This document shows, one piece after another, positions 5,938 through 20,900 of a stretch of 64,000 nt of DNA; position 1 is the first letter of the stretch; the number at the start of each line of letters is the position of its first letter. Under the pieces are notes generated by a model that had not been told where the DNA came from, did no database searches, and saw only the letters and a list, made by a program, of their open reading frames with translations. The translations under genes and the position numbers were made by a program. The stretch comes from Deltaproteobacteria bacterium. GTDB taxonomy: Bacteria; Myxococcota; Kuafuiibacteriia; Kuafuiibacteriales; Kuafuiibacteriaceae. Location of the stretch: assembly GCA_016703535.1 (NCBI GenBank), contig JADJBV010000001.1, forward strand, positions 385,014 through 449,013, read 5' to 3'.

Positions 5938-6384
5938 ATGGCCCGCCGCATCTTCAATGGCCTGGAGGTCGAGATCCCCGAGGGATGGAGGGATTACTCC
6001 AGCATCGTGTTGGCGCCGCAAGAAGACGCGACAACTGGGCAACTCCCGACGATCAACTTGGTAGTGAAACGTAGGCCTGCGAGCGGTCGGGAAGGGGGAA
6101 CCCTGGTTTCCACCTACCTCGACTACTTGGCCCGGAGCTTCGGGCCCCTCCAGTCTTTGGAGACCAAAGAGGTGGACCACGGTCCGGCCCGGGCCACGGC
6201 CGTGCGCTTTCGAGCCGAACACGAAGGCCGCGCCTTCCAGCAGACGACCTTGTTGTACCGCTTTGGCGAAGACGAGATCGCCGCCACCGTCACCCAAAGC
6301 GACGGCGACCCGACCTCGACCAAGGAAGTGGAGAAGTTGCTCCACTCGGTGCGCCCCGTCGCGGGCCCGAGGCGGCGGTCATGA
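5938..6384 (+). CDS. Small 148-aa protein with DUF1795/DcrB-like fold features, of the EagR-type adaptor class.
   Basis: The ATG lies 2 nt after the stop of the giant gene. The protein carries an N-terminal FNGLEVEIPEGWRDYS motif and a C-terminal FQQTTLLYRFGEDEIAATVT motif, both reminiscent of the DUF1795 consensus. The assignment is by eye only. Confidence 0.45.
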   Translation: MARRIFNGLEVEIPEGWRDYSSIVLAPQEDATTGQLPTINLVVKRRPASGREGGTLVSTYLDYLARSFGPLQSLETKEVDHGPARATAVRFRAEHEGRAFQQTTLLYRFGEDEIAATVTQSDGDPTSTKEVEKLLHSVRPVAGPRRRS

Positions 6385-8009
6385 TCCACTCCTTCCTCCA
6401 GAGCGGCAGCGCCCGCTTCGAGCAGCTGGCGGGCCCCGAGTTGGCGATCGCGGTCCGGGAGATCGACAGCAAGTTCCAGCCGGACTGGAAGAAGAACGAC
6501 GTCGCCGAACGCACCCGAGCCACGGTCGTCGAGCCCTTCCAGCGGGCGATGGCGGCCCACGGCCAACCCCGTTTGTTGCGCTCTTTTTCGATCGGCGAAA
6601 AGAAGGAAGACCTCGAGCTGGTGGGCCCGGGCCACAACAAGGCCGAAGAACAGCTCCACTTCCTGGAGTTGGGTGAACAGGTTTTTGTGGTCGCCTCCTA
6701 TCAACGGGATCACGACCGGACCGAACTGCGCCTTTATCCGCCCCTGCCGCGCCGAGGTGTGCCGACCCTCGAGGCCCTCAAGGAGCGTGGCTTTCAAGGC
6801 CTGTACGGCCAAGATCGGGGCGACGTCGAGGTCGTGCGTTTGTTCCGGGAGCGGGGCCCACGCACCGACGTCCAGTTCGGCAAAGGCAAACGCTACGAAG
6901 ATCAAAACTTCGCCTGGGCCCTTTACGAGTCGTTGACCTCGGCCTTGCGCCGGGGGGATCGCTCGGCGGCCTCATTGGGCCCGGAGTTGATCAAGGCCCA
7001 GCGGATCCACGAGTTCGTGGACGCCCGCCTGCGAGAGGGCCGGCCGGTGAACTTTTCGCTGCTATTGCCCTACTTGGCCCACGCCAAAGGCCAACTTTTG
7101 CCTGACGGTCCGCCGGGCGGACAGGTGTTGCTCCACGCCCTGGAGTGGAACGGCAAAACCGTGGCCGTCACCCAAGAGCTCGGCCCCAAGCCGCGGATCC
7201 GGGCGTTCTTGCGCGATCAGATCGGTGAACAGCCGACGTGGCTGGAGCTCCGGTTCCCAGCCCAGGCCGAGGTCCCGGCCCGAGGTGTTTCGGCTTTGAT
7301 CCAAGGAGATCGGCTGCGGCTCTTCGGCGGCGTCGACCGCGCGAACAACGGCTTGGCCACCGAGTGGACTTTTGCGCTGGAGCAAGGCGCGCGCAACGCC
7401 TACCTGGACAGCACCTTTCAACCGGGCCCCGGGCTGGACGGGCCCCGAGCTTTTGCGACGGCGATCGCCCCCGACCGGGTGGCCTTGTTGGGCGGCGTGG
7501 CCGGCTTCTACGCGGGTCGCGGGAAGGCCGAAGCCGAGGCCCCGGCCTGGCAACGTCGATGGTCGGAGCAGGCCAAGGGCCAAGCCGGCTGGCGCGACGC
7601 GGGCGCACTCCCCGATCGGATGAGCGGCGGTGGGTCGACCTTCGCCACCGCCGATGGCGCCTTTGTCGGGCCGGGCGCGGGCCTGGACGGTCGCCTCTGT
7701 TATCTGGACTTCAAGAATCGAGTGGCGATCGAGTTGCCCGAGTTGCCGGGCCGCCTGGGCCTGGGACAACTCCACTTGGACGACTCGGTGCTCTACTACT
7801 CGGGCGGCTACGGTCTTCGGGGTGACGGCGCGAGCGCCGAGAAGATCGTCTATGGCTTGGATCTCAACCAGCTCGATGGCTGGAAGAAGATCGGCGACTG
7901 CCAACTTTTGGCCGGCTCCAACCGGCTGGTCCACCGGGGCGGCCGCCCGATGATCCTGGGGCTCTCTCCTCAGGGGCGCTTCACCTTCGTTCCCGGAGGT
8001 GCGCCGTGA
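6381..8009 (+). CDS. Hypothetical 542-aa protein whose C-terminal half has Gly-rich blades that may form a beta-propeller.
   Basis: Its start overlaps the upstream stop as ATGA. Codon usage is consistent with the neighbouring genes. No catalytic motif was recognised. Confidence 0.6.
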   Translation: MIHSFLQSGSARFEQLAGPELAIAVREIDSKFQPDWKKNDVAERTRATVVEPFQRAMAAHGQPRLLRSFSIGEKKEDLELVGPGHNKAEEQLHFLELGEQVFVVASYQRDHDRTELRLYPPLPRRGVPTLEALKERGFQGLYGQDRGDVEVVRLFRERGPRTDVQFGKGKRYEDQNFAWALYESLTSALRRGDRSAASLGPELIKAQRIHEFVDARLREGRPVNFSLLLPYLAHAKGQLLPDGPPGGQVLLHALEWNGKTVAVTQELGPKPRIRAFLRDQIGEQPTWLELRFPAQAEVPARGVSALIQGDRLRLFGGVDRANNGLATEWTFALEQGARNAYLDSTFQPGPGLDGPRAFATAIAPDRVALLGGVAGFYAGRGKAEAEAPAWQRRWSEQAKGQAGWRDAGALPDRMSGGGSTFATADGAFVGPGAGLDGRLCYLDFKNRVAIELPELPGRLGLGQLHLDDSVLYYSGGYGLRGDGASAEKIVYGLDLNQLDGWKKIGDCQLLAGSNRLVHRGGRPMILGLSPQGRFTFVPGGAP

Positions 8010-8449
8010 GTTTGCTCCACCCCGAGCAGCTGCGGCACCGGGCCGAACGTTTGTTCGCCGACGTGGGCGCCCTCGGCACCGCGGCGGGCCTGGGCTTCGT
8101 GTCCGCCGAACGAGGTGTGGCCAACCAAGGCATCAAGGCCTTGGCCGACGGCCCCTGGGCCTTTTTGGATCTGCGCAACGTCGAAGGCGCCAAAGCCGAG
8201 GGGTTGTTGACCGACGTTTTGGCCGCGGGCCCGAGCCAACTGTTGATCGCCGCCCACCGGGAACCGGCGCCGGCCTTGGCGCGGGTCCTCAAGGCCTACG
8301 TCGATCGGGCCCCGGAGCTCTTGTTGGGCGGCCGAAAGCTGGCGCGGCCCGAGGGCGCCGCGGTGCTGTTGGTCCTCGACGGGGCCACCAACCTGGTGGG
8401 CCTGCCCGAACCCTACCCGAGCCTGCCTTATTGGGACTTTTTGCCATGA
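8006..8449 (+). CDS. Hypothetical 147-aa protein.
   Basis: It starts at a GTG that overlaps the upstream stop as GTGA, so it is translationally coupled. Confidence 0.5.
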   Translation: MSLLHPEQLRHRAERLFADVGALGTAAGLGFVSAERGVANQGIKALADGPWAFLDLRNVEGAKAEGLLTDVLAAGPSQLLIAAHREPAPALARVLKAYVDRAPELLLGGRKLARPEGAAVLLVLDGATNLVGLPEPYPSLPYWDFLP

Positions 8450-9567
8450 CCCGCATCGGCCCAAAAGAACTCCAGGCCCTGCAGGCGGCCTTGGCGAGCC
8501 GAGACGAAAGTGGGCTCCTCGATCCCGAGCAGGTGATCCAGGACTTCGTGCGCCTGGAGCCGGGGGCCCGGGTCTACTACTCGGAGGGCGACGGTCGGGT
8601 TTCGCTTTTGGTGCCGGTTCGGGACGAATACCTGGGCCTGGATCGGGTGCCCTTCGCGCCGTCCCGCAACTTGGCCAACGTCATCCACGAGGCCAAGGTC
8701 GAAAAGAAGGAGCTGGAGCTCCCGGGGATCGGCCGCTTTTATCAGGTCGTCTTTTCGCCACTCTTCGATCTCAAGGGCAAAGCTCAAGCCGCCGCCGAAG
8801 GTGGCCCGGTCGAGGTTGCCTTTCAAGGTACCGGCCCTGGCGGCGTGTGGAGCGCCTTTTCCCGGGAAGAGGCCTGGTTCAAAGATGATCTCGCGACCTT
8901 GATCAGCCTGTCGATGGAGGGTGGCTTTCGGGTGGGGCCCGAGCTGCGCGGCCCAGGCTGGAAGCGTACGCAAGGCCCGACCTTCTCCGAGCTCGAGAAG
9001 CGTACGGCGCGCCCGGTGGCCGGCCATCAAGAGCTGGCCCAAGGCGCGATCCATGGGGCCGAGCTGGTCACCGCTCGGCCGATCCCGGTGGCGCCGGCGC
9101 TTCCCGAAGCCCGCACCGACTTCGAGCCGGAGGAGCTCAAGGCCTGGCCCGGCGAGTGGAGCCTGCCCGCCCTCGAGGCCCACTTCCCGAAGTTGCGGAC
9201 CGAAGGGCACGCGGTGGTGCTGGAGGGGGAGCGGGGCCAGGAGGTTCGGCTGGAACGAGAGGTGGTCGCGGGGATCTCCAGCTGGAGTTTGGGCCAAAAA
9301 GAGCTGCGACCGCTCCTCGACGCGGACCCCCGGACCTTGGAGCGCCTGGTGCAGGTGCTCGAGCCCTTCGCCGCCGAAAGCGCGGCCCACCCTTTGTTGG
9401 CGTTGTGGCGCGCCGAGCGGGATCAGAACGACGGTGGGGTCGTCGCCGACGTTTTGGGCGCAGCCCGTGAGCTGATGGTGCAAAAGAACGCGCGCCGAGA
9501 GGCCCAACAGGCGCTCCACAAAGCGGCCTTCAAGAAGAGCTTCAAGCCGACGGGAGGTGCCGAGTGA
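8446..9567 (+). CDS. Hypothetical 373-aa protein.
   Basis: Its ATG overlaps the upstream stop as ATGA. The 7999..9567 ORF in the track is a 5' over-extension of this gene. Confidence 0.6.
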   Translation: MTRIGPKELQALQAALASRDESGLLDPEQVIQDFVRLEPGARVYYSEGDGRVSLLVPVRDEYLGLDRVPFAPSRNLANVIHEAKVEKKELELPGIGRFYQVVFSPLFDLKGKAQAAAEGGPVEVAFQGTGPGGVWSAFSREEAWFKDDLATLISLSMEGGFRVGPELRGPGWKRTQGPTFSELEKRTARPVAGHQELAQGAIHGAELVTARPIPVAPALPEARTDFEPEELKAWPGEWSLPALEAHFPKLRTEGHAVVLEGERGQEVRLEREVVAGISSWSLGQKELRPLLDADPRTLERLVQVLEPFAAESAAHPLLALWRAERDQNDGGVVADVLGAARELMVQKNARREAQQALHKAAFKKSFKPTGGAE

Positions 9568-9932
9568 ACGACAAGCTGGTCACCGTCGAGGACTTCTTTT
9601 TGTTGCTCGGGAGCTTGCTCGAGTCGCGGCGCGCGGCCTTCCGTCGCCGCCTGACCTTGGCCTTTGCGGTGGTCGACGGTGGGCCGTGGTTCGTCGACAC
9701 CGGCGCCCCGCGGATCATCGTCCAGGAGTGGCGCCGAGACGCCCAGGTGTCGGTGTTGTGCAACCGTCGGACCCTGTCCGATCTCGTCGGCGGCCACTTC
9801 GATCCCAACGCCCCCGCCGCCGAGCACCTGTTCGTCTGGGGCGGCGACAAAGAGACCTTCTCCACCCTGGCCCAGGTGCTGGGTGGAGCCATGACCGCCT
9901 TCGGCGCCCACCTGTCGGCGCTGAAGAGATGA
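9564..9932 (+). CDS. SCP2 sterol-carrier-like domain protein of 122 aa.
   Basis: It starts at a GTG overlapping the upstream stop. The motif LSDLVGGHFDPNAPAAEHLFVWGGDKETFSTLAQV resembles the SCP2 consensus G..dp..a...G.lkv.Gd......l. Confidence 0.6.
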   Translation: MNDKLVTVEDFFLLLGSLLESRRAAFRRRLTLAFAVVDGGPWFVDTGAPRIIVQEWRRDAQVSVLCNRRTLSDLVGGHFDPNAPAAEHLFVWGGDKETFSTLAQVLGGAMTAFGAHLSALKR

Positions 9933-9942
9933 GGAGCAGCAA

Positions 9943-10818
9943 GTGGACGCAGTGAAGCGCAACGCACAGTACCTGCTCCGCCTCGTCGACGGGCTGGCCC
10001 AGCCGATCAGCGCGCCTGAAGCCCAGGCGGTGGAGCGCACCGTCCGCAGCCTGAAGCACCCCGAGCTCCTCGACCTCGGCGCCATCGAGGGTTTGGGCCT
10101 TGCCCCCAAGCTGGAGGCGGCCCTGGTGTTCCAGCTCCTCTCGCGCCGCTACCCGGACCAGGTGAAGGCGGCGGTGTACTCGGCCCACACGCTGTCGGGC
10201 GTCTTCTTGGCGGTGCTCGGCGCGAAGCCGGAGGCCGACCCAAAACGCGCGGTAGGCCAGGCGCCCGAGTTCGTTACGCGCTTCGTCGATCAGCTCCACG
10301 CGCTGCGGCCGGAGAGCGACGGGACCGGCACCAGCCTCGGGGCGGTCCGGGGCGCCAAACTCGTCTCCCACGACTTGGCCCAAGGTGTCGTTCGGCTGAA
10401 GCTCGAAGGCTCGGGTGGTGAGCCGGACCGGGACCTGAGCCTCCACCGTCGGGACGACGGTGCCTTCGACTACCAGGTCGCCGGCGGCAAGCGGCAGCGG
10501 GTGGAGACGCTGGACCTGCCGGGGCTCCGCGTCCTCCACCAGGCGCTCCACGCGGCGACGGCCGGCGGCGCTCAGGACCCGATGTTGGCCTTGCTCCGGC
10601 GCAAGACGGAGGCGGACCGCGCCGCTGTCCTCAAGGAGGCAGCCGAACACCTGGGGGACCTGGTCACCCAGAAGGCCGAGCGCCGAACCAAGGAGCTTGA
10701 GCAGCTCCGTGGGGCGTTGGAGGTCGGCTTCGCCGATTTCCGGGTCGGCTTTTTCGACAAAGACAGGATCGACGCGCTGGCCAAGGAGCTGTTCGCCGCG
10801 CCCGGGAAGAAGGACTGA
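9943..10818 (+). CDS. Hypothetical 291-aa protein whose N-terminal domain is paralogous to that of the gene at 17202-18479.
   Basis: A GGAG Shine-Dalgarno lies 6 nt upstream of the GTG start. The stretch GLGLAPKLEAALVFQLLSRRYPDQV matches GLGLSAGLRANLIFAWLNHRYPDQI in the downstream gene. Confidence 0.6.
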   Translation: MDAVKRNAQYLLRLVDGLAQPISAPEAQAVERTVRSLKHPELLDLGAIEGLGLAPKLEAALVFQLLSRRYPDQVKAAVYSAHTLSGVFLAVLGAKPEADPKRAVGQAPEFVTRFVDQLHALRPESDGTGTSLGAVRGAKLVSHDLAQGVVRLKLEGSGGEPDRDLSLHRRDDGAFDYQVAGGKRQRVETLDLPGLRVLHQALHAATAGGAQDPMLALLRRKTEADRAAVLKEAAEHLGDLVTQKAERRTKELEQLRGALEVGFADFRVGFFDKDRIDALAKELFAAPGKKD

Positions 10819-10821
10819 GCC

Positions 10822-13263
10822 ATGCCTTTTACGCCAATCGACAAGAACATCGGTTTTTCGGCCCTGTGGGCCCAAGGCAACGACGAGCAGCTCGGCGTGG
10901 TCGAGGCGTTTGGCCGCAGGCCGATGACCGAGACGGCGTTGATGGAGTTCGCCCTCGACAACCCGGGGCTCGCCGCGACCTTAAAAGAGATGGTCCAGGT
11001 GCTGCGCCAGGGCGGGCCGGCCAAGGGCAGCGTCAACGACTTCCGGGCCAACCTTAGCCGCTCCGAGCGGGTGGGGCGGACCCGGGCGAACGCTCAGCCG
11101 GTTGACGTCGAAGCGATCATGCAGGTGATCGATCGGAACATCATCGGGCAGGCCCACGTGCGAGACGCGGTGCGGGTGATGCTGGAGGCCTGGCCGGATC
11201 AACCGGAGAAGGCCCTGCCGTACGTGATGGGTATGGCCGGACCGCCGGGCGTCGGCAAAACCGAGCTCTTCCGGGCCTTGTCCTTGGCCATCTACGGCGA
11301 CCCGGAGGCGGTGGCGATCATCGACTGCAGCAAGATCTCCAAGAAGCACGAGATCGCCGCGGTATTTGGGGCCGCGCCGGGCCTCAAGGGCACTCTCGAG
11401 GAGGGTGAGGTTCCGCCCATGTGGCGGCCGCTCTTCGAGAAACAGGTGAACGGCCGGCCGAAGCTCGTCCTATTCGATGAGCTCGACAAGGTCGGCGCGG
11501 GCGAAGACTCGGCCGAGGCGCGGCAGGAGGCGGTCACCGCCTTCTCGATGACCCTGGGCCGCTTCCTCGAGGACGGCGTGCTCGGTTTCGGCAACGGGGT
11601 CTCCATCCCGCTCAAGGACTGTGTGATTGGCTTCGCCTCGAACGCAGGATCGGCGACGCGTGGGAACAAGGAAGGCGAAGGACTGCGGCAGCACTTCGTC
11701 GATGCCTTCAACGCCATCGTGCCCCCGCACATCTTCGACCGGCTCGACACGACTTTGTCTTTCGATCCACACACCCCCGAGACCCTCGCGATGGTCGCGA
11801 AGAAGATCATCGACAAGACCGTTGCCGAAGAACTCAAAGAGGTGCGCCGGGAGTACGGGATCGACGCCCAGATGCTCTTCCAACCCCCGGGCGCTTCGCA
11901 GGCGGACGGGAGCCGGAAGGAGGGCCCCGGCGAGGTGCTGACCTTCCTCGGTGAAATCGGCTATCACCCGGAACGTGGCGCACGTGGCCTCGACAAGTTG
12001 ATCAAGTCTCTGGTCAAGCCGATGATTCGAAAGGCGGCGGCGGAGATCGAAGACGGCGAAAGGGTGCTCTTCGAGTTGCGGGACAAGATCCTCCAAGCCG
12101 ACGGGACCTTCCGCGCCGGCGGCCCCCTCGACGAGGTGAAAAAGGCCCAGCTCAAGGCCCAGTTTTTCGAAGCCAAGGCTTCCATCCCGAAGGGCGTGAA
12201 CCAGGCTTCCTTCCCCCTATCCTTTCGGGTGCTCAACCCGAAGCCCGGCTTCTTCGAGTATCAAGGCGCCGCCCAAATTCCGCACGATACGAACTTTCCG
12301 CTGCTCGTCTACGGCTCAGGGGCGGTCAACGGCCGCGGCTTCATGGTCTCCCAGCCCCACCTCGACGCACCGGCGGCGCTCCACTTCTTGCGACCGGGCC
12401 TCTTCGAGCATGAAGACCGGGTCGACTCGGTGCGGCTGCCGGAACACTTGGAGAAGGCCGAGCACGACCTCAAGGCGGTGGCCCTCGACGATCGCCAGGT
12501 GATGATCTACGGCGTCGGCACCGCCAAGGGGGGGGCAATGGCCGAGGCGCTGGCCGCGATCTACGACACCAAGACCAAGAAGTGGAGGGACGCCGCTCCG
12601 CCGGATCTGCCGCTGGTCGGCGCGTCCTTGGTCGCCGGAAATGGCAAGGCGCTCCTCTTCGGCGGCCGGGTTCAGGAGAAGAGCGCGGATGGTTCCTGGG
12701 CGGTCGACGACGACCCGCTGCGGATGCGGGGACAGCCGATCGAGAACCAGGCCTATGTCTACGACTCGAAGAAGGACGAGTGGCGTTGGGTCCAGGGCCC
12801 TGAGGATGGCCTGGTCGGATCCGCGACCGTGTTCCAGCAGGGGAAGGGGTACATCATCGGCGGCGAGGAGACTTTCCGTCGGGAGAACTCCCAGATCGAC
12901 AGCTCTCGGGCCTCCCGGCGGGTCCTGGTCTTCGACTTCGAGACCGAGACCTTCGCCGCCGGCCCTCGGCTGCCGGCCAAGTTCGAGCAGGGCCTCGCTT
13001 TCGGGACCGCCTTCGCCGACGCCAACGGAGGCATCTCGGTGGTCGGCGGAGGCGTGTACCTCGACGGCGGGAGAAAGTTGGAGCCCACCCAAAGCTACTA
13101 CCGGCTCTCGGGTGGTGCCTGGCGGAGCGGAGATATGCCCCAGCCCGGTCTCTGCTTGAGTGCGCTGCCGCAGGCCGAGTCGTCCTGGGTGATCGGGCCT
13201 TTCCGCCGGGACGCCAACACCTTCGGCTTCGACATTCTCCGCCCGCGGACCACGGAGGATTGA
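10822..13263 (+). CDS. ClpA/ClpB-D2-type AAA+ ATPase of 813 aa with a single AAA module and a C-terminal Kelch-like beta-propeller.
   Basis: Walker A is GPPGVGKTE and Walker B is LVLFDELDK. IIDCSKISKKHEIAAVFGAAPGLKGTLEEGE corresponds to ClpB-D2 [30 protein letters not shown]. The sensor-2 motif is GARGLDKLIK, matching GARPLKRAIQ. The C-terminus carries repeated GG...W/Y..YD blades at about 12290-13260. Confidence 0.85.
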   Translation: MPFTPIDKNIGFSALWAQGNDEQLGVVEAFGRRPMTETALMEFALDNPGLAATLKEMVQVLRQGGPAKGSVNDFRANLSRSERVGRTRANAQPVDVEAIMQVIDRNIIGQAHVRDAVRVMLEAWPDQPEKALPYVMGMAGPPGVGKTELFRALSLAIYGDPEAVAIIDCSKISKKHEIAAVFGAAPGLKGTLEEGEVPPMWRPLFEKQVNGRPKLVLFDELDKVGAGEDSAEARQEAVTAFSMTLGRFLEDGVLGFGNGVSIPLKDCVIGFASNAGSATRGNKEGEGLRQHFVDAFNAIVPPHIFDRLDTTLSFDPHTPETLAMVAKKIIDKTVAEELKEVRREYGIDAQMLFQPPGASQADGSRKEGPGEVLTFLGEIGYHPERGARGLDKLIKSLVKPMIRKAAAEIEDGERVLFELRDKILQADGTFRAGGPLDEVKKAQLKAQFFEAKASIPKGVNQASFPLSFRVLNPKPGFFEYQGAAQIPHDTNFPLLVYGSGAVNGRGFMVSQPHLDAPAALHFLRPGLFEHEDRVDSVRLPEHLEKAEHDLKAVALDDRQVMIYGVGTAKGGAMAEALAAIYDTKTKKWRDAAPPDLPLVGASLVAGNGKALLFGGRVQEKSADGSWAVDDDPLRMRGQPIENQAYVYDSKKDEWRWVQGPEDGLVGSATVFQQGKGYIIGGEETFRRENSQIDSSRASRRVLVFDFETETFAAGPRLPAKFEQGLAFGTAFADANGGISVVGGGVYLDGGRKLEPTQSYYRLSGGAWRSGDMPQPGLCLSALPQAESSWVIGPFRRDANTFGFDILRPRTTED

Positions 13264-13266
13264 CCG

Positions 13267-15975
13267 ATGGCCCGCCCCACCATTGCCACCGCGCCCGCGA
13301 CCATCAAGCCGTCGCGCTTCGGCCTCGCGCCGGAGCACGAGGCTTGGCTCAAGCAGGAGTTCGGCGAGCAACCGTCCATCCATGACCTCGACCGGGTCGA
13401 GCGGGCCGGCGGCCTGACCGCCACCCAGAAGCGCATCCTCGACGCCGTGCGCCGATCGGTGGTGGGCAACCTGCGGGCAACCGCGGGGGTGGCCTTCAAC
13501 AAGGACGGAAAGGTCGAGCCCGGGACTCAGCGGATCTGGACTCTCCGCACGGCCAAAGTGCCGACGGGCCACCTCTCGAAGGCCGCCGCCTTCGAGGCCG
13601 AGATGAAGCCGTTCCTGATCGGCCAGGTTGGGGCGCTCAAAGACTTCAAGCGTTTCCTCGACGCCTACAACCCCCTCGTCAAGAACACGCCGCCGATGAT
13701 GGTCATCGGCGGGGAGGAGGGCCACGGGAAGTCCGAGGCCTTGGATGGGTTGGCCAAAGCGCTCTTCGGCGAAGCGGCCACGGTGTTCACCGTCGACCTC
13801 AGCAAGGTCACCGACGACATGCACGACGCGCTCTTTTCGGCCGGCGGCAAAAAGGGCGATCTTTCGGTCCCCCGTCTGATGGAGATCGAAGACAACAAGT
13901 TGGGGATCGTCCACCTCACCGGGCTTGACCAGTTGAAGGCGCGGGCGCCCCAGATCGCCGACACCCTGCTCAATCGCTTGGGCTGCCGCGCCGACGACAA
14001 GGACCACGCCTGGGTCCCCTTCGTGCTCGACTTCGACAGCGCACCCGACACCAAGCTGGCCCCGATCCTCGAGGATGCCTTGGGCAAGGCGGCGGTCCTT
14101 TTGCGCAAGGCCCAAAGCTCCTTTCAGTATCTCGACGCGGACGCGATGGCCGAGTACCTGGAGATCGCCTTGCCCCAGCTCCTGCAGCGGCCAGGGCTGG
14201 GCCAACTCCACCTTGAGTGGGACGACGAGGCCAAGGCGGCCTTCGCCGAGGTCCTCGCCACCCGCTTGACGCCCATCGATCAATTGCAGCCCCGCCTGGA
14301 GAACCTGATCCTGGGGCCGGTCAGCGCCGAGATGGTCCCGGCCGACGCGTTGCTGCGGGTCCACCTCCTCGCGGAATACGCCGATCACCCGGACAAGCTC
14401 GCGGCGGCAATCAAGGAGCTGCAGGACCCGGCGCTGGACCTCCTCGAGGCGCCCCAGATCTTCACGGTCACCGAGGAGGGGCGGGTTGCGGATCCGGCCT
14501 TGGTGGAGGGACTGATCGAGAACTCGGAACAAGTGCTCGAAGCGCTGCTGCAGTGCTCCCAGCACCATGACCTGGAGGTCCGGCGGCTGTTCCCCGAGTA
14601 CGATCGGCTGGAGCGGCTGGACCAAGTGATGGGCGAGATGGCCACGGCGCTTCGCACGCGGGCTAGGCAGAAGGGCAAGCTGATCTTCGAGCCCGCGCCG
14701 CACGAGCGGCTGGGCGGGTTGGTCGCTGAATGCGAGAAGCTGGTCGCTCAGTTGGGCCGAATGACGGCGGAGCGGCAAGCGCAGCTCGATGTGTCGATGC
14801 CCGCCCACGTGGTGGTGGCCCTCCAGAGTGTCCTCGAAGGGGTGCGGCTCATCGCACAAGCCTCCGACCTGTTGCGCGGTGAAGCGCCGACGCCAGACGG
14901 CACGCGGGCCCACGCGGCGCAGCTGAACCGGGCCATCGAAGCCCTGACCAACGCCCGCGGGCTATTGCCGATCGGCAACCTGGGCAAAAACCGGATCACT
15001 CATCAGCTGCAGGCGCTGGCCGCGAAGTGGATCGAGGCGGTTGCGGTGGCGCGTCGGTCCCAGCAAGAGGGCATGTTCCCGCTGGTACTGGAGACCGACG
15101 CTCAGGATCTGATCGATGAGGCCCGAAAGCTCCGCGGCCAACTCCCGGTCAAGCCTTTGGCTAAGGGTGAGCGAGAGACCAACGTCCGGCGTTTGTTCGA
15201 GTCCAGTCCCGAGGCCAAGAAGGAGCTGAAGGACCTCGATCGTCTCGTCAAGATGACCATCGAAGTCGCCGAAAACCTGGGGGGCCTGTCGGACGCTCAG
15301 CGCAAGACGGTGGCAGACCTAGCCAAGGAGGAGAGCGCGGACTCGTTGTCCGCTCGTCGCAAGATCGCCAAGGAGCTGATCACCTGCGAAAACGGCGCGA
15401 CCGATGTCGACGAACGTCTGGTCAGGGCCGAGTTGATCAAGCTACCGAAGGCGGCGCTCGAGCGGCTCAAGAAGACCGAGGTGAAGGTCTACGTCGTGCG
15501 GGGCAAGATCACCGACTTCTTGAAGCAGCTCCCCAAGGGCGCCCGTCCGCCCGGGTACCCCGAAGGCAAGACCTTCGACGATGTGCCGGCGATCTTCGTG
15601 CCGAAGGAGGCTGAGGGCAATGACAAGGGGGACATCGTCGTCATCGTCACCAAGGAGGTGAATGGGAACGTGATCCTGCCCGGCCTCGACGTAAAGCGCG
15701 GCTACAACCAGGTCATCCACGAGTGCCTCCACGGCTTGGATGTGCAGAACTACTACAGCACGAAGGAGGAGTTCGTCTCGGCGAGAGAGGCGGAGCTGGG
15801 CGTCCTCAGCCAGTACGAGAAGCAGGCCAAGGAAGGGAACTTCGATCGGGGGGCCGCTGAGACCTGGGCCATCACCGGCGAGCGCCTCTATGGCGGCGAC
15901 GAGAGCGTTCGCAAGGAACGTCCGCTCCTCGTCAAGGTCGTCGAGGACGCCTTCGGGACAGGGGCGTTCGCATGA
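13267..15975 (+). CDS. Divergent ClpB-D2-like AAA+ module of 902 aa with a C-terminal zincin-type HExxH metallopeptidase-like domain.
   Basis: Walker A is GGEEGHGKSE. Walker B is the atypical IVHLTGLDQ, with DQ in place of DE. A long helical middle region follows. The C-terminal HECLH motif at 15718-15732 is preceded by the hydrophobic beta-strand stretch VILPGLDVKRGYNQVI, as is typical of zincins. Confidence 0.7.
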   Translation: MARPTIATAPATIKPSRFGLAPEHEAWLKQEFGEQPSIHDLDRVERAGGLTATQKRILDAVRRSVVGNLRATAGVAFNKDGKVEPGTQRIWTLRTAKVPTGHLSKAAAFEAEMKPFLIGQVGALKDFKRFLDAYNPLVKNTPPMMVIGGEEGHGKSEALDGLAKALFGEAATVFTVDLSKVTDDMHDALFSAGGKKGDLSVPRLMEIEDNKLGIVHLTGLDQLKARAPQIADTLLNRLGCRADDKDHAWVPFVLDFDSAPDTKLAPILEDALGKAAVLLRKAQSSFQYLDADAMAEYLEIALPQLLQRPGLGQLHLEWDDEAKAAFAEVLATRLTPIDQLQPRLENLILGPVSAEMVPADALLRVHLLAEYADHPDKLAAAIKELQDPALDLLEAPQIFTVTEEGRVADPALVEGLIENSEQVLEALLQCSQHHDLEVRRLFPEYDRLERLDQVMGEMATALRTRARQKGKLIFEPAPHERLGGLVAECEKLVAQLGRMTAERQAQLDVSMPAHVVVALQSVLEGVRLIAQASDLLRGEAPTPDGTRAHAAQLNRAIEALTNARGLLPIGNLGKNRITHQLQALAAKWIEAVAVARRSQQEGMFPLVLETDAQDLIDEARKLRGQLPVKPLAKGERETNVRRLFESSPEAKKELKDLDRLVKMTIEVAENLGGLSDAQRKTVADLAKEESADSLSARRKIAKELITCENGATDVDERLVRAELIKLPKAALERLKKTEVKVYVVRGKITDFLKQLPKGARPPGYPEGKTFDDVPAIFVPKEAEGNDKGDIVVIVTKEVNGNVILPGLDVKRGYNQVIHECLHGLDVQNYYSTKEEFVSAREAELGVLSQYEKQAKEGNFDRGAAETWAITGERLYGGDESVRKERPLLVKVVEDAFGTGAFA

Positions 15976-16199
15976 GCCAGCCCAAGTTCATCGGCATCGC
16001 CGAGATGGATGAGCGGGGTGTCTTGGACCTCCGCCTCTCGGCGGCCTCGCCCTACGGCTTTGGAGGTTCCCACTTCACCTACTTCCCCGACGATCCCGAA
16101 TACGACGCGGTCATCCGGCACCTCGGCGGGATGCGCCCGGGCGAGACCAAGTCGGTCCCGCCTTGGCCCGAGGGCTCCTCGATGGGGGGTGCTTCATGA
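15972..16199 (+). CDS. Small hypothetical 75-aa protein.
   Basis: It is coupled on both sides by ATGA overlaps, at 15972 upstream and 16196 downstream. Confidence 0.45.
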   Translation: MSQPKFIGIAEMDERGVLDLRLSAASPYGFGGSHFTYFPDDPEYDAVIRHLGGMRPGETKSVPPWPEGSSMGGAS

Positions 16200-17200
16200 G
16201 CAACGGCAACCGGCCCCTCGGTGGCTACGATCCGAACAAGGCCGTCGATCGGCAAGCGGGGGCGACGGCCTTCCAGCCCAAGGTGAAGCCGGGCGCCGAA
16301 ACCCAGGCCAAGGTCGAGGGCGGGGGCGTGGAGCCGAAGCTCGCGCCCCGCACCATGGCCCTCCCACGGATCTCCGCCAAGGAGCGGCCGGTTGAGGCCG
16401 GCTATGAAGAGCACCTCGAGCGGCTAGAGGAGGCCATCGAGCAGCAGACCGCGGCGATCGTCGAGCATGTGGCCGAGATCGCCGCCGAAAAGGGCCTCGA
16501 TCCCAGCGACGTGACCCTGGTCTGGTCCTTGGACATCACCGGGAGACAGGACGTGGTCTGCTCCTTCTGCGGCCGCCCGAGCTGCACGTTCCGGCCGGTC
16601 CAGTACCGCACCCGCAACCCGGAGGTTGATCTCCTTGGGGACTCGATCATCGTGTTCCAGGAGGCCGCCGCGCGGGCGGGCGTGAAGTACGGGATCATCG
16701 TGTACGACGAGGAGGTCTTGGTGCTGAGGGACCCGGCCACCGCGGGCGACCAGGCGGAGCGGGCCGACACCCTCACGCGCTACACCCAGTTCCGGGATCG
16801 GCACGACTACCCGGATCCCAATAGCCAAAGTTGGCTGCAGCAAGCCTTGGCCAAATGGAACCCCGCCGACGCCGCGCGGCGCGTGTCCGGAGATCCGGCC
16901 GACGGTCGAATGTTCGAGGCGGCCTTCAAGATCTTCCAGCAGGTCGGCGGCGCCTTCAAGTCGATGGTGGTAGCCAAGTCGGTCGAACCGCGAGGCGGGA
17001 TCAGGGGCTTCGAGGTCCGGGCCAAGCAGGCGGGGATCCAGATGACCGGCCTCGCGGTCGGCGATCGCGCAGAGGCGGTGGCCCGGCGGTTCCTGGACCG
17101 AACGTTGATCGCCCAGGACGCCCACCAACTCCGGGATAGAGTGGGCGACGGGGTCAATACGTCCCTCCAGGCGATCAAGGACCTCCCGGCGAAGGGCTGA
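16196..17200 (+). CDS. Hypothetical 334-aa protein.
   Basis: Its ATG overlaps the upstream stop. It contains a CSFCGRPSC Cys cluster. The track ORF at 16163 is an over-extension of this gene. Confidence 0.55.
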   Translation: MSNGNRPLGGYDPNKAVDRQAGATAFQPKVKPGAETQAKVEGGGVEPKLAPRTMALPRISAKERPVEAGYEEHLERLEEAIEQQTAAIVEHVAEIAAEKGLDPSDVTLVWSLDITGRQDVVCSFCGRPSCTFRPVQYRTRNPEVDLLGDSIIVFQEAAARAGVKYGIIVYDEEVLVLRDPATAGDQAERADTLTRYTQFRDRHDYPDPNSQSWLQQALAKWNPADAARRVSGDPADGRMFEAAFKIFQQVGGAFKSMVVAKSVEPRGGIRGFEVRAKQAGIQMTGLAVGDRAEAVARRFLDRTLIAQDAHQLRDRVGDGVNTSLQAIKDLPAKG

Positions 17201-17201
17201 T

Positions 17202-18479
17202 ATGGTCAAGCGAGTTGAAGGAGCCGCCGACTTCTATCGAGGGTTGGCCAAAAGTCTGGACGGGGCTCGGGTCGATCCGGCCAAGCTGGGTGAGATCCAG
17301 GACGTCGTCGAGAGCCTCTCGCCCGAGGCGCCGCTCACCCTGCAGATCATCGATGGCCTCGGGCTCTCGGCGGGGCTGCGGGCCAACCTGATCTTCGCTT
17401 GGCTGAACCACCGCTATCCCGACCAGATCGAGGAGCAACTGCCGGTGGCCCAGTCGATCGCTGGGGTCCTCCGAGCTTTGGTCGATGGGGGTCAGCCCCC
17501 CGCGTTCTTGCAGGAGTTCTACGTGCGCCTCACCCATACGCCAGCGTATGGCGGCGCCGCGGAGATCCACGCCTTGGCAGACCTACTTGAGAAGGGGCAG
17601 CCGCGTTACGTCGGCGAGCGCGACGGGCGCGTGGTCTTTCAGGCCAGCGTCGGCGCTGACCTTCGGGCCCACTTTCCGGACCAGCTTCGGGAGCAAGAGG
17701 TCACCTTGGTCGCCTCCCCAGACGGCGGTGGTGGGTTCCAGCTGAGGCCGGAGGGCGGGAAGTCCTTGGCGGCGCTCAAGGGGGAGCCAGCCCAGCTGGG
17801 TGAACTCCCGCCGGGGGCGCTCGCGGGCTTGGTGGCGGCGCTGAAAGCGGGCGCGCAGCGGGGTGGTCTCGCCCAAGTGGGGAAGGCGCTCCGAACCGAA
17901 CTCGGGCGGGCCGCGGAGGGCTATGAGGCGCCGGTCCACCCGGTGGAGGCGAGGTTGGACCAGTTGCTGCGGCTGACCCTCGGCAACCAGCGGGTGGGCG
18001 AGACCCGATTGGAGAGCCTGAACCAGCTGATCGAGCAGTCCCTTGCCGCGGCGGAGCTGGCGATGCAGTCGCCGGGGGCGGTGCAGGTGCTGCTCAGCGC
18101 GGCCAAAAGCGTCGAGGCTCTGGAGGTACCGGAGGACGGCTACCAGGCCTCGGGCTTGTCGCTTCCCAAGCTCAAAGAGCGGCCGGCCCCGGCGAACAAG
18201 GCGTCGGCGAAGGCCTCCACGCCCGAACCCGAGGAGGCGCCCAAGGCCTCCGCCGATCCGCTGAAGCCCACCGACCCATCGCCCGATCCGACGTCCCCCA
18301 GCGGGAACCAGGGCGGCGATGCGGACATCGGGGGAGGCGGGGGCTGGGCCAACGCGACAGGCAACCCCAGGATGATCACTCGGCGGCCCCGGGGCCGGTC
18401 GGTGACGCTCCCGGACGACCTCGACTTGGCGGCGCTGAAAGCCTTGGTGGCATTGCTCCGGCGACATCCACGGGCCTGA
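17202..18479 (+). CDS. Hypothetical 425-aa protein with an N-terminal domain paralogous to the gene at 9943-10818 and a Pro/Gly-rich low-complexity C-terminus.
   Basis: Its ATG lies 1 nt after the upstream stop. The paralogy is visible in the GLGLS...RYPDQ motif. It is the last gene of the operon. Confidence 0.6.
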   Translation: MVKRVEGAADFYRGLAKSLDGARVDPAKLGEIQDVVESLSPEAPLTLQIIDGLGLSAGLRANLIFAWLNHRYPDQIEEQLPVAQSIAGVLRALVDGGQPPAFLQEFYVRLTHTPAYGGAAEIHALADLLEKGQPRYVGERDGRVVFQASVGADLRAHFPDQLREQEVTLVASPDGGGGFQLRPEGGKSLAALKGEPAQLGELPPGALAGLVAALKAGAQRGGLAQVGKALRTELGRAAEGYEAPVHPVEARLDQLLRLTLGNQRVGETRLESLNQLIEQSLAAAELAMQSPGAVQVLLSAAKSVEALEVPEDGYQASGLSLPKLKERPAPANKASAKASTPEPEEAPKASADPLKPTDPSPDPTSPSGNQGGDADIGGGGGWANATGNPRMITRRPRGRSVTLPDDLDLAALKALVALLRRHPRA

Positions 18480-18549: not shown

Positions 18550-18623
18550 GGTGGGGTAGCTCAGGTGGTTAGAGCGAGGGTCTCATAAGCCCTAGGTCGG
18601 GGGTTCAAGTCCCCCCCCCACCA
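18550..18623 (+). tRNA. tRNA-Met with anticodon CAT (elongator type; an Ile2/lysidine tRNA cannot be excluded).
   Basis: The cloverleaf was folded by hand. The acceptor stem is GGTGGGG/CCCCACC, the D-stem GCTC/GAGC, the anticodon stem AGGGT/GCCCT with loop CTCATAA, and the T-arm GGGGG-TTCAAGT-CCCCC. The discriminator is A, no CCA is encoded, and the length is 74 nt. Confidence 0.9.
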
Positions 18624-19564
18624 TGTCCGAATCGCCGCTGGCCGAACGTCTCTTTTCCCTCCGCACGCCGGATGGGACGACCTTGGTGCTCGCCGAGGTC
18701 CTTGGGGGCGAAGAAGCCGGCACCGGTCCGTCGTTCCTGTTGATCCACGGCCTGGCTCAAACCCGGCGGGCCTTCGAGCTGGGGCCGCTCCCCCGACTGT
18801 TGTTGGGCCAGGGGGCCCGGGTGTTTTTGGGCGAACTTCGAGGTCACGGGCGCAGCCACGGGGCCGAGCCGGCGCACGAGCTCGAGGCCTACTTCAGCCA
18901 GGATCTGCCGACCTTCTTCGACGCCATCCCTGGCCCCATCCACTACGTCGGGCACTCCTTGGGTGGGATCTTGGGGTACGCGGCGCTGGGGCGGCCCTTG
19001 GGAGCACGGTTGGCGTCGGTCACCGGAGTGGCCGCGCCCCTGACCTTGGCCGCGGGCCGGCCGGACATCCGTTTGGCGGCGGCCTTGGCGGGACCGATCG
19101 CCTCTCGCTTGGACTCCATCCCCCTCGACCGGCTCCTGGCAGGGCTGGCCAAGCCGTTGGCCCGGCCGGCGGCGCCGTTTTGGCTGCGGGCCTTTCAGCG
19201 CTACGTGGGCTTGACCAACCCAGCGCTGGCGTCGGCGGCCGCGCTCGAGGCCACGTTGGTGACCTCTCACGCCGAGTCACCCGCCGTCTTTCAGGCCTTG
19301 TTGGCGATGGCGGTCTCGGGGCGGCCGCTGTTGCTCGGGCAGGATCTGGAGGCGGCGGTGCGACGGGCGCACCAACCGGTGGCGGCGATCGTCGGGGGAC
19401 GAGACGTCTTCGCGGCGCCAGCCAGCGTCCGTGGGCTGGAGCAGGGGGTGGGCCCGAGGTTGGTGCACTTGGTGGAGCACGGCGCCCATGTTGACCTGAC
19501 CCTTGGCCACCATTGGACCCGGACCTTCGAGCGGTGGTGGCCCTTCGTCACGGCCCCGCGTTGA
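18623..19564 (+). CDS. Alpha/beta-hydrolase fold protein of 313 aa.
   Basis: It has the GHSLGG nucleophile elbow (VGHSLGGILGY) and an N-terminal ...PSFLLIHG oxyanion-region motif. The annotated ATG begins on the discriminator base of tRNA-Met, so the start codon is uncertain. Confidence 0.75.
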   Translation: MSESPLAERLFSLRTPDGTTLVLAEVLGGEEAGTGPSFLLIHGLAQTRRAFELGPLPRLLLGQGARVFLGELRGHGRSHGAEPAHELEAYFSQDLPTFFDAIPGPIHYVGHSLGGILGYAALGRPLGARLASVTGVAAPLTLAAGRPDIRLAAALAGPIASRLDSIPLDRLLAGLAKPLARPAAPFWLRAFQRYVGLTNPALASAAALEATLVTSHAESPAVFQALLAMAVSGRPLLLGQDLEAAVRRAHQPVAAIVGGRDVFAAPASVRGLEQGVGPRLVHLVEHGAHVDLTLGHHWTRTFERWWPFVTAPR

Positions 19565-20007: not shown

Positions 20008-20673
20008 ATGATCACCCTTTATACGGCCCCCACTCCCAATGGCTGGAAGGCCTCCATCACCCTCGAGGAGCTGGGCCTGCCTTACCAAGTGCGGGCTTTG
20101 GATCTTGGGAAGATGGAGCAAAAGGAGCCGTGGTTCCTGGAGCTCAATCCCAACGGGCGCATCCCGGCGATCGTCGATCACGACAACGACGACTTTGCGG
20201 TGTTCGAGTCGGGGGCGTTGATGATCTACCTGGCCGACAAGGTCGGGCGGCTGTTGCCGAGCGATACCAAGGCTCGGTCTCGGGTGATTCAGTGGCTGAT
20301 GTTCCAGATGGGCGGGGTGGGGCCGATGATGGGGCAGGCGAACGTGTTTTATCGTTATGCGCCTGAGAAGATCCCGTACGCGATCGAGCGGTACCAGAAG
20401 GAGAGCCGGCGGTTGTTCGAGGTCTTGGACCGGCAGCTGGCGAAGGCGGAGTTTTTGGCGGGCGAATATTCGATCGCCGACATCGCCAATTGGTCTTGGG
20501 TGCAAGGTTATGGCTGGTCGGGGTTGAGCATCGACGGGCTGCCGAACTTGGCGCGGTGGCTCGAGGTGATTGGGGACCGGCCGGCGGTGCAGCGGGGCAA
20601 GGCGGTGCCCGTGAAGGCGGAGGCGGTGGCCGATGCGTCTCGGGTGGAGACGGCCCGGAAGTTGTTGCCATGA
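20008..20673 (+). CDS. yfcG: Nu-class glutathione S-transferase / GSH-dependent disulfide-bond oxidoreductase, similar to YfcG/YghU.
   Basis: [14 protein letters not shown]...[12 protein letters not shown]...[11 protein letters not shown]...IPYAIERYQ...[12 protein letters not shown] aligns nearly end-to-end with E. coli YfcG, aligned from memory. Confidence 0.85.
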
Positions 20674-20846: not shown

Positions 20847-20900
20847 GGTGAGCGCTTGGGCCTGATACACTCACCTGGCGGGGCTGGCCCCGAGAACTCC

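Follow-up and report, generated by a model that had tools for sequence, protein, structure and literature searches.

A ClpB-D2-type AAA+ module occurs in two neighboring genes of a 64,000-nucleotide (nt) stretch of contig JADJBV010000001.1 from a Deltaproteobacteria bacterium, once as an intact ATPase and once as a degenerate paralog whose protein ends in a zinc peptidase. The whole stretch is called the window here, and all coordinates are positions within it. Gene A (10822-13263) encodes the intact module followed by Kelch repeats, and gene B (13267-15975) encodes the degenerate module, a helical middle region, and a peptidase domain of the M34/ATLF type. Genes of the two kinds follow each other in the same order in every genomic context that was read. 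The interpretation preferred here, with a chance that falls a little short of even, is a two-part machine in which A would act as the motor and selector, and B would dock on the A ring and bring in a site-specific protease. Both open reading frames are on the plus strand, exactly at the coordinates given by the first-pass annotation, which was made from the sequence of the window. The genes are separated by 3 nt, with GGAGGA in front of the ATG of B. The G+C content is 62 to 72% across the whole window, and no signal peptide or transmembrane segment is predicted in any protein of the operon.

A matches the Pfam model AAA_2 over residues 138 to 310 (E value of 2.6e-13; 50.8 bits with a cutoff of 27). 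Its best match in the PDB is the isolated nucleotide-binding domain 2 (NBD2) of ClpB from T. thermophilus (residues 112 to 418; E value of 8e-15), in an alignment that extends through the small domain of NBD2, and human CLPB/Skd3 is also matched, with an E value of 8e-7. The NCBIfam ClpB model TIGR03346 aligns with A at model positions 564 to 848 only and with 66.6 bits, far below the cutoff of 1232.1, which shows A as a carrier of a D2-type module and not as a ClpB ortholog. The ClpB_D2-small model remains below its cutoff of 21.9 bits in A (18.1 bits) and reaches 34.8 bits in the homolog from L007; the labels L001 to L014 and I-eyKFDv, a JGI contig, denote the related loci compared with the window. 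A belongs to the Clp/Hsp100 D2 lineage as a divergent member, and the N-terminal module of B belongs to it as a degenerate one.

Full-length homologs of A fall into seven clusters. In addition to the Walker A and Walker B residues listed in Table 1, sensor-1 residue N274, the arginine finger R307, and G386, A387, and R388 of sensor 2 are invariant in 7 family members; N274 and R307 align with the TSN and NRL motifs of ClpB. The distant A-like proteins of L007, L008, and L010 retain the GVGKT core of Walker A, the DE pair of Walker B, and the arginine finger, with slight variation in sensor 1 (GNP in L008) and sensor 2 (GSR in L010). Judged by these motifs, A has everything needed for ATP binding and hydrolysis in a ring. 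Pore loop 1 differs from that of ClpB: A shows GLKG in place of GYVG, with leucine at the aromatic position. Across the A family, this position is leucine, tyrosine, or phenylalanine, and one of the two aromatic residues is present in 4 of 8 extended-family members.

The C-terminal region of A exceeds the cutoffs of four Kelch models, Kelch_2 (35.8 bits, cutoff of 21.3; E value of 6.5e-9), Kelch_6 (29.5 bits, cutoff of 25.3), Kelch_1 (23.7 bits, cutoff of 20.1), and Kelch_3 (24 bits, cutoff of 22), and the scores of the L007 homolog are higher than those of A itself. Designed Kelch propellers in the PDB match the same region with an E value of 6e-5, and a family hidden Markov model (HMM) of the region matches the A-like proteins of L001 to L004, L007, and L008. 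The first-pass description of A as a single ClpB-D2-type module fused to a Kelch propeller is borne out by the AAA_2, NBD2, and Kelch matches, and all motifs that it quoted are found in the translations of A and B.

The N-terminal module of B, referred to as BN, is not matched by Pfam AAA models apart from a weak AAA_16 hit, and BLASTP aligns B with A over 87 residues around the phosphate-binding loop (P-loop) only (E value of 1e-4). Comparison of the A family with the BN family by profile-profile alignment (hhalign) gives a probability of 96.8% and an E value of 2.6e-10 over 367 columns, from residues 9 to 420 of A and 11 to 394 of B. This match takes in a common helical domain preceding the AAA+ core. 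An AlphaFold model of residues 1 to 450 of B, built from an alignment of 47 sequences, reaches a predicted local distance difference test score (pLDDT) of 89.1 and a predicted template modeling score (pTM) of 0.77. In a Foldseek search of this model against the PDB, all 50 of the 50 best matches are ClpB or ClpC; the fold comparisons as a whole place ClpA and ClpB NBD2 closest. Sequence profiles and an independently predicted fold thus confirm the paralogy of A and BN, and with it the earlier proposal that B begins with a degenerate copy of the A module.

The degeneration of BN extends across its family, as seen in 47 aligned sequences. Within the P-loop, G154 is found in 47/47, H153 in 44/47, and K155 in 39/47 sequences, with glutamine, glutamate, or threonine replacing the lysine in the other 8. 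The following residue is serine or threonine in only 9/47 sequences, neither of the two in 38/47, and aspartate in 21/47. The first-pass annotation had read the Walker B motif of B as DQ in place of DE. The hhalign register corrects this reading: LFDELDK of A lies opposite VHLTGLDQ of B (LTGLDQ, residues 217 to 222), so that TG stands in place of DE and the DQ is located three residues downstream. No BN sequence (0/47) has aspartate or glutamate at the two Walker B columns, and G219 is found in 36. The sequencing variant considered as an explanation in that annotation is excluded, since the loss is common to the whole family. The sensor-2 GAR is replaced by a family motif of its own (Table 1), in which R343 is conserved in 44/44 sequences. 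An arginine within residues 276 to 281, near the arginine-finger position, is present in 33/47 sequences, and the D-F-D motif at the tip of the sensor-1 strand (D255-F-D257) is conserved in 37/47, 37/47, and 30/47 sequences at its three positions. The strong conservation of several positions despite the loss of motifs indicates a conserved pseudo-ATPase and not a decaying sequence. From these motif states, B is predicted to be unable to hydrolyze ATP, and the impaired hydrolysis suggested at first stands as a prediction on different grounds, namely the missing acidic Walker B residues, the rare serine or threonine of the P-loop, and the replaced GAR.

The C-terminal domain of B was compared with Pfam ATLF, which has a cutoff of 27.4 bits; the full protein scores 24.3 bits and the domain alone 28.1 bits, and 71 of 72 relatives of the domain match the model. 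A profile built from these 72 sequences aligns over the whole domain with PPEP-2 (6fpc; E value of 3.4e-27) and PPEP-1 (E value of ~1e-26) in the PDB, and it also matches anthrax lethal factor (E value of 3.7e-6). The PPEP and lethal factor alignments pass through HExxH as well as the downstream tyrosine and glutamate. E865 is invariant and Y850 is conserved in at least 90% of the 72 sequences, and both align with the YP.E.FAE segment of the PPEPs. The substrate-loop segment of B, RPPGYPEGKTFDDVP, parallels VPKGWEGTGKTWDDVP of PPEP-1. The profile matches together with the conserved catalytic set place the HExxH of B in a real and apparently competent M34 peptidase, and the HECLH motif belongs to a genuine zincin fold of the M34/ATLF type, one of the families that had been proposed for it. 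Among the stand-alone relatives of residues 690 to 895, PAAR motifs occur in 3/72, and others carry Amidase_3, LysM, or glycine-zipper domains; these fusions indicate that the M34 domain is also used elsewhere as a secreted or toxin module.

The region connecting the two domains of B is matched by its own HMM in B orthologs only. It is helical in a low-confidence model, and the confident model contains a long helix at residues 410 to 449. The AlphaFold model of the whole protein, based on a 4-sequence alignment, was set aside because of its pLDDT of 47.8, and a composite alignment of 113 sequences for full-length B was discarded because peptidase-only sequences were misplaced onto the N terminus.

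The dead module is reused as an N-terminal unit in front of interchangeable C termini. The B profile, run with HMMER against 1.84 billion representative proteins, retrieved 336 relatives, 4 of which are full length; ~45 share only residues ~5 to 430 and end in other C termini, and >100 share only residues ~690 to 895. In the same protein set, the BN family comprises ~45 clusters at 50% identity. The close homologs of B form four clusters, and B itself is identical to a hypothetical protein on a 6.9-Mb contig of a deltaproteobacterial metagenome-assembled genome. The M34 peptidase is one of several C termini found on BN proteins; others are a propeller of the WD40 type (P0131 and P0142), tails of only 100 to 130 amino acids (aa), and long regions of unknown type. 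A word-indexed protein search with the BN profile returned 7 proteins, and a pattern scan of metagenomes returned two fragments only. Neither a family model in Pfam, NCBIfam, PADLOC, or PHROGs nor a published description was found for the BN module, for its pairing with A, or for the cassette described below.

The association of the two gene types is strict. An A-homologous AAA_2 ATPase lies directly upstream of the BN gene in 10/10 contexts, i.e., the window, L001/L002, L003, L004, I-eyKFDv, L007, L008, L010, L011/L012, and L013, and Kelch profiles match this ATPase in all of them except L003 and L013. A and B diverge in parallel between loci, with A/B identities of 52/56, 42/43, 35/37, 34/34, and 26/29%. 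In L008 (255 to 15097), one A-like gene is followed by five abutting BN paralogs of 637, 927, 766, 1,088, and 733 aa, whose long C-terminal regions show no Pfam match. The BN group of L008 shows a canonical GHGKTE P-loop, and the array adjoins tuf-secE-nusG-rplK.

Two further genes accompany the pair. A gene for 67 to 75 aa is located directly 3' of B in all peptidase-type contexts (the window, L001/L002, L003, L004, L005, and I-eyKFDv; aligned for four contexts and read in L005) and is absent after the nonpeptidase BN genes of L007, L010, L011, and L013. The 75-aa protein of the window shows no family match. Its C-terminal Pro-Pro motif (..VPPWPE/PPWP) was considered as a PPEP-type site and rejected, being replaced by RP or PS in orthologs. 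Homologs of the 334-aa protein encoded next follow the BN gene in L001 to L005 and L007, as found by BLAST, and in L010, and an unaligned gene for 319 to 330 aa takes the same position in L011/L012 and L013/L014. A Trypco1 assignment for this protein was rejected as chance, with 1/6 members matched at an E value of 0.006.

Table 1. Features of genes A and B and of the neighboring genes in the window
Feature	Position	Strand	Details
Gene A	10822..13263	+	813 aa; shared N-domain, one ClpB-D2-type AAA+ module, Kelch-repeat C-terminal region
AAA+ module of A, large and D2-small subdomains	11131..12087	+	Residues 104-422; aligns with ClpB NBD2 residues 54-323
Walker A of A, GPPGVGKTE	11239..11265	+	Residues 140-148; invariant in 7 family members
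Pore-loop-1 equivalent of A, GAAPGLKGT	11368..11394	+	Residues 183-191; GAPPGYVGY in ClpB
Walker B of A, LVLFDELDK	11464..11490	+	Residues 215-223; D219 and E220 invariant in 7 family members
Sensor 1 (GFASNAG, N274) to arginine finger (HIFDRLD, R307) of A	11629..11748	+	
Sensor 2 of A, GARGLDKLIK	11977..12006	+	Residues 386-395; aligns with ClpB GARPL
Conserved C-terminal region of A with Kelch repeats	12145..13260	+	Residues 442-813; Kelch matches at residues 552-743
Gene B	13267..15975	+	902 aa; dead ClpB-D2-type module, helical middle, M34/ATLF zinc peptidase
BN module of B	13267..14556	+	Residues 1-430; three-helix N-domain, degenerate AAA+ large and small subdomains
Degenerate P-loop of B, GEEGHGKSE	13711..13737	+	Residues 149-157
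Walker-B-equivalent strand of B, IVHLTGLDQLK	13906..13938	+	T218 and G219 in place of D and E
LATRLTPIDQLQPRL of B	14254..14298	+	Family motif LATPHxPLxELxxRL replacing sensor-2 GAR; T332, P336, and R343 invariant or nearly so
Helical middle region of B	14557..15333	+	Residues 431-689; ~260 helical residues between AAA module and peptidase
M34/ATLF-type zinc metallopeptidase domain of B	15334..15951	+	Residues 690-895
HECLH zinc-binding/catalytic motif of B	15718..15732	+	H818, E819, and H822 invariant in 72 sequences; aligns with HExxH of PPEP-1/PPEP-2
Y850 (YEKQ) and E865 (GAAETWAITGE) of B	15814..15900	+	Equivalents of catalytic tyrosine and third zinc ligand
75-aa gene	15972..16199	+	4-nt overlap with the stop of B (ATGA)
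334-aa protein gene	16196..17200	+	Contains a conserved CxxCG and NPE; belongs to the conserved cassette as its third member
Giant protein gene, C-terminal 1,977 aa	2..5935	+	Runs off window start; Pfam VWA_2, 30 bits, residues 1797-1869
Six codirectional genes	5938-6384 (DcrB-like), 6381-8009, 8006-8449, 8446-9567, 9564-9932, 9943-10818	+	Mostly 4-nt overlaps
425-aa protein gene	17202..18479	+	N-domain paralogous to that of 9943-10818; orthologs in L002-L005

The cassette of the window and of its closest relatives lies inside a codirectional array of ~12 genes that starts with the gene of a giant protein. The ortholog of this protein on the L001 contig has 4,213 aa and contains AAA_5; the layout from AAA_5 to VWA is midasin-like, in a bacterium. 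Two DxSxS-type motifs, LVDQSGSTSD and INADISTSTS, were recognized by eye in the part encoded in the window. The giant gene is absent from the contexts of L007, L008, L010, L011, and L013 and is not directly upstream in L003, which shows that it is not part of the core. The order of the six genes between the giant gene and A is the same in L001, in L004, and, by gene sizes, in I-eyKFDv. The DcrB match of 5938-6384 is weak and below the cutoff (E value of 0.0035; likewise weak in two orthologs), as is an Alkyl_sulf_C (SCP2-like) match of the 122-aa protein of 9564-9932 (E value of 0.027). The 542-aa protein was considered as a paralog of the Kelch region of A, a relationship left unsupported by a BLASTP E value of 0.14 and no HMM match. 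The 291-aa protein of 9943-10818 and the 425-aa protein share an N-domain (BLASTP, 34% over 89 aa; E value of 5e-10) of ~90 aa with the motif ..L[SN][RH]RYPDQ.., and L003, the most divergent locus, contains four paralogs of this family (853-2130, 2127-2999, 3391-4302, and 10729-12408). Neither the 542-aa family nor the 291/425-aa family shows a sequence relative in the PDB, and the latter also has none in Pfam.

Other surroundings vary. In L011 (1561 to 14263), the neighbors of the cassette are a 965-aa protein that faintly matches Sigma54_activ_2 (AAA+), an 862-aa protein of unknown type, a Prok-JAB protein of 610 aa, and a gene for 86 aa. A 426-aa protein after the L007 cassette partially matches Sigma54_activat (27.6 bits, cutoff of 20.2). 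Beyond the operon of the window, open reading frames recognized by eye resemble an α/β-hydrolase (18623-19564; GHSLGG), a glutathione S-transferase (20008-20673), and a Ser/Thr kinase with a proline-rich tail (20856-22760; HRDLTPRNI). In PADLOC v2, the AAA core of A partially matches DolB (E value of 2.3e-10) and also matches PDC-M37B; nothing meaningful was found for B or its neighbors, and no listed defense system is complete. A phage origin was considered and rejected, as PHROGs yields a generic Clp match for A and two weak clamp-loader matches only.

In the proposed machine, A would be the ATP-hydrolyzing motor. Its one ClpB-D2-type module would presumably assemble into a ring, and selection of the partner or substrate would fall to the Kelch propeller. 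The ClpB-D2-like module of B, with its conserved P-loop and the arginine that is usually kept near the arginine-finger position, would dock into or onto this ring. The site-specific M34/PPEP-type zinc endopeptidase would be carried by the long helical stalk of B, and the machine would make targeted cuts under ATP control in the cytoplasm instead of degrading substrates processively. The dead module would serve as a reusable adaptor, with relatives exchanging the peptidase for WD40 or unknown domains and with five such adaptors placed behind one motor in L008. The 75-aa protein is probably an inhibitor of the peptidase, an immunity protein, or a substrate, and the 334-aa protein may be a third constant subunit. 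A docking or co-assembly function is the simplest reading of BN, because A and BN are inseparable, diverge together, and occur as one A gene followed by several BN genes. A heteromeric ring of active A and inactive B subunits is plausible and is favored by the strict adjacency and the parallel divergence. By analogy, a role of the cassette in conflict or defense is a possibility, suggested by the modular effectors, the propeller sensors, the inactive NTPase (nucleoside triphosphatase) paralog, the toxin-type peptidase, and the small partner gene. A wider proposal, speculative and on balance unlikely, is that A, BN with its exchangeable domain, and the ~330-aa protein constitute a new class of modular AAA+ machine in which dead plug-in subunits would load effector or sensor domains onto one ring, as a bacterial counterpart of Torsin-LAP1, possibly with an immune or conflict function and with a protease that would be released by ATP-dependent activation and restrained by the 75-aa protein.

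Compared with the D2 modules of ClpB, ClpA, and ClpC, A and B each contain a single module with no D1, ClpN, or M-domain and carry a private three-helix N-domain as well as foreign C-terminal domains; B lacks Walker B and sensor 2, and the pore loop of A is the GLKG described above. Skd3/CLPB is the closest architectural analog of A, with one D2-type module and a repeat domain. Skd3 carries ankyrin repeats at the N terminus, in contrast to the C-terminal Kelch repeats of A, and neither a dead paralogous partner nor an associated peptidase is known for it. The pair recalls LAP1, which shows an AAA+-like fold with a strictly conserved arginine and no nucleotide motifs and acts on the Clp-like ATPase Torsin (PMC4358337). 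In the Torsin-LAP1/LULL1 system, the ATPase lacks an arginine finger of its own and the partner provides one. A has its own finger, a P-loop is retained in B, and B, as the putative partner, is a recent paralog of A and not a remote relative by fold.

The peptidase of B resembles PPEP-1, PPEP-2, PPEP-3, and lethal factor in the alignment of HExxH, the tyrosine, the glutamate ligand, and the substrate loop (PPGYPEGKTFDDVP versus PKGWEGTGKTWDDVP). The PPEPs described from Firmicutes are small and secreted (PMC8610288, PMC12828418), whereas in B, which comes from a high-GC deltaproteobacterial metagenome-assembled genome, the domain forms the C terminus of a protein of 902 aa that has neither a signal peptide nor a hydrophobic N terminus. 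Trp103 of PPEP-1 is replaced by tyrosine in B. The peptidase of B is a member of the MEROPS M34/Pfam ATLF family but not a typical PPEP, a type that carries a signal peptide and cuts between two prolines. The first-pass annotation compared B to FtsH, and this comparison holds only loosely, in that, as in FtsH and Lon, an AAA+ fold and a protease, here a zinc peptidase, are joined on one chain. All other defining features differ: the AAA+ module of B is dead, the protease is of the M34 type instead of M41 or Lon S16, a helical spacer of ~260 aa separates the two, no membrane anchor is present, and ATPase activity would come from a separate chain, A. Contrary to the chambered M41 type, M34/PPEP-type enzymes such as the peptidase of B are site-specific and have an open cleft.

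Two defense-related systems show partial similarities. As in Dodola, the cassette contains a ClpB-like ATPase, and the match of A to DolB covers residues 92 to 224 of the AAA core and takes up 116 of the 375 positions of the model; judging from the model, DolB lacks Kelch repeats and a dead-paralog partner. Kaur et al. (2020; PMC7159879) described MoxR-vWA ternary conflict systems with inactive NTPases as third components. In theme, these systems resemble the genes studied here, with multi-AAA+ operons in complex bacteria that combine an active ATPase, a vWA protein, and an inactive NTPase paralog, as well as propeller repeats, peptidase effectors, and small processed proteins. In contrast to them, the active/inactive pair studied here is of the Clp-D2 type and not MoxR or STAND, and the vWA domain is located on the giant midasin-like protein, which is dispensable for the core cassette. 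The article was rejected as a description of the architecture itself, as it contains no Kelch, DcrB, or lethal-factor terms and mentions ClpB in the reference list only.

Several observations weigh against the proposed motor-adaptor machine. The lack of an aromatic residue in the GLKG pore loop suggests that substrate threading by A may be weak or absent, leaving remodeling only, and its own arginine finger implies that A, unlike Torsin, needs no B for catalysis. The 334-aa protein shows no relative in Pfam or the PDB, and its fold and the middle region of B are without assignment. The family comes almost entirely from metagenome contigs, and pattern scans for the BN family and B in 185,579 species-representative genomes gave no confirmed relative, although exact short patterns can miss divergent members. 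The D255-F-D257 motif of B could in principle provide noncanonical catalysis. The corresponding view, in which B hydrolyzes nucleotides in a noncanonical way, e.g., through D255/D257, and A and B are two independent ATPases, draws on the strong conservation of GxxGHGK and D-F-D; the replaced P-loop lysine (8/47), the absent serine or threonine (38/47), the missing acidic Walker B and GAR, and the lack of any Pfam AAA match beyond the weak AAA_16 hit leave it very little likelihood. The proteins of the B family may instead be substrates of A and not its cosubunits, with the dead AAA fold as a stable handle that A recognizes through the Kelch propeller or the shared N-domain before it unfolds, activates, or recycles B. 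One motor for five different BN proteins in L008, the complete catalytic set of A with its own arginine finger, and the aromatic pore loop in 4/8 extended-family members agree with such a client relationship. It is nevertheless judged improbable, as conservation of the P-loop and of the near-finger arginine is hard to explain for a passive handle, A of the window lacks the aromatic pore loop, and paralogous AAA+ modules typically co-assemble, as in Pex1/6, Rvb1/2, and the clamp loaders.

Two other explanations give more weight to the neighboring genes. A and B may be accessory to a midasin-like machine, formed by the giant AAA_5/VWA protein and ~8 proteins of unknown type, that would function in the assembly or remodeling of a large cellular structure and not in conflict. 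This explanation accounts for the order of ~12 genes, which is kept together with the giant gene in L001 and L004 (43 to 85% identity) and, judged by gene sizes, in I-eyKFDv, for the 4-nt overlaps suggesting one translationally coupled unit, and for the VWA domain at the C terminus of the giant protein, and all proteins concerned are predicted to be cytoplasmic. It is hardly probable in view of L007, L010, L011, and L013, where no giant gene accompanies the cassette formed by A, BN, and the ~330-aa protein, and of L008, where none accompanies A and BN; in L003, none is directly upstream. The giant protein is accordingly an add-on of one sublineage and not the core. The last explanation follows the logic of polymorphic toxins, with B as an effector that joins a conserved N-terminal delivery module through a stalk to a C-terminal toxin peptidase, A as its dedicated chaperone or export ATPase, and the 75-aa protein providing immunity. 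The variable C termini on a constant N-terminal module, the small gene found directly after the peptidase versions only, and the fusion of the peptidase family to PAAR in 3/72 relatives are features expected of such a system, but the operon contains no secretion-system genes, signal peptides, or transmembrane segments, and no small genes lie between the five successive BN genes of L008. WD40 domains and short tails are not toxin-like, and a folded pseudo-ATPase of 430 aa would be an unusual delivery domain, which makes this explanation a poor candidate.

Pairs of active and inactive AAA+ proteins recur in the regulation of motors, as in the clamp loaders, Pex1/6, Torsin-LAP1, and FtsH/FtsHi; no bacterial example of a Clp-D2-type pair with a swappable dead subunit turned up. 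Beyond the two fusion proteins recognized in the first-pass annotation, the present analysis places the pair in a conserved cassette, located in the window within an operon of ~12 genes, and shows that the dead module is reusable and its C termini variable. The cassette is uncharted, since neither Pfam, NCBIfam, PADLOC, nor the PDB contains a relative of the BN module, of the 334-aa protein, or of most of the operon around them. Its rarity and metagenomic origin limit immediate experimental access. Endopeptidases of the PPEP/lethal-factor type have so far been known as secreted enzymes or toxins. If A and B assemble, such an endopeptidase would be under the control of ATP inside the cell, and the pseudo-ATPase would be a universal adaptor coupling one motor to different enzymatic or binding heads.

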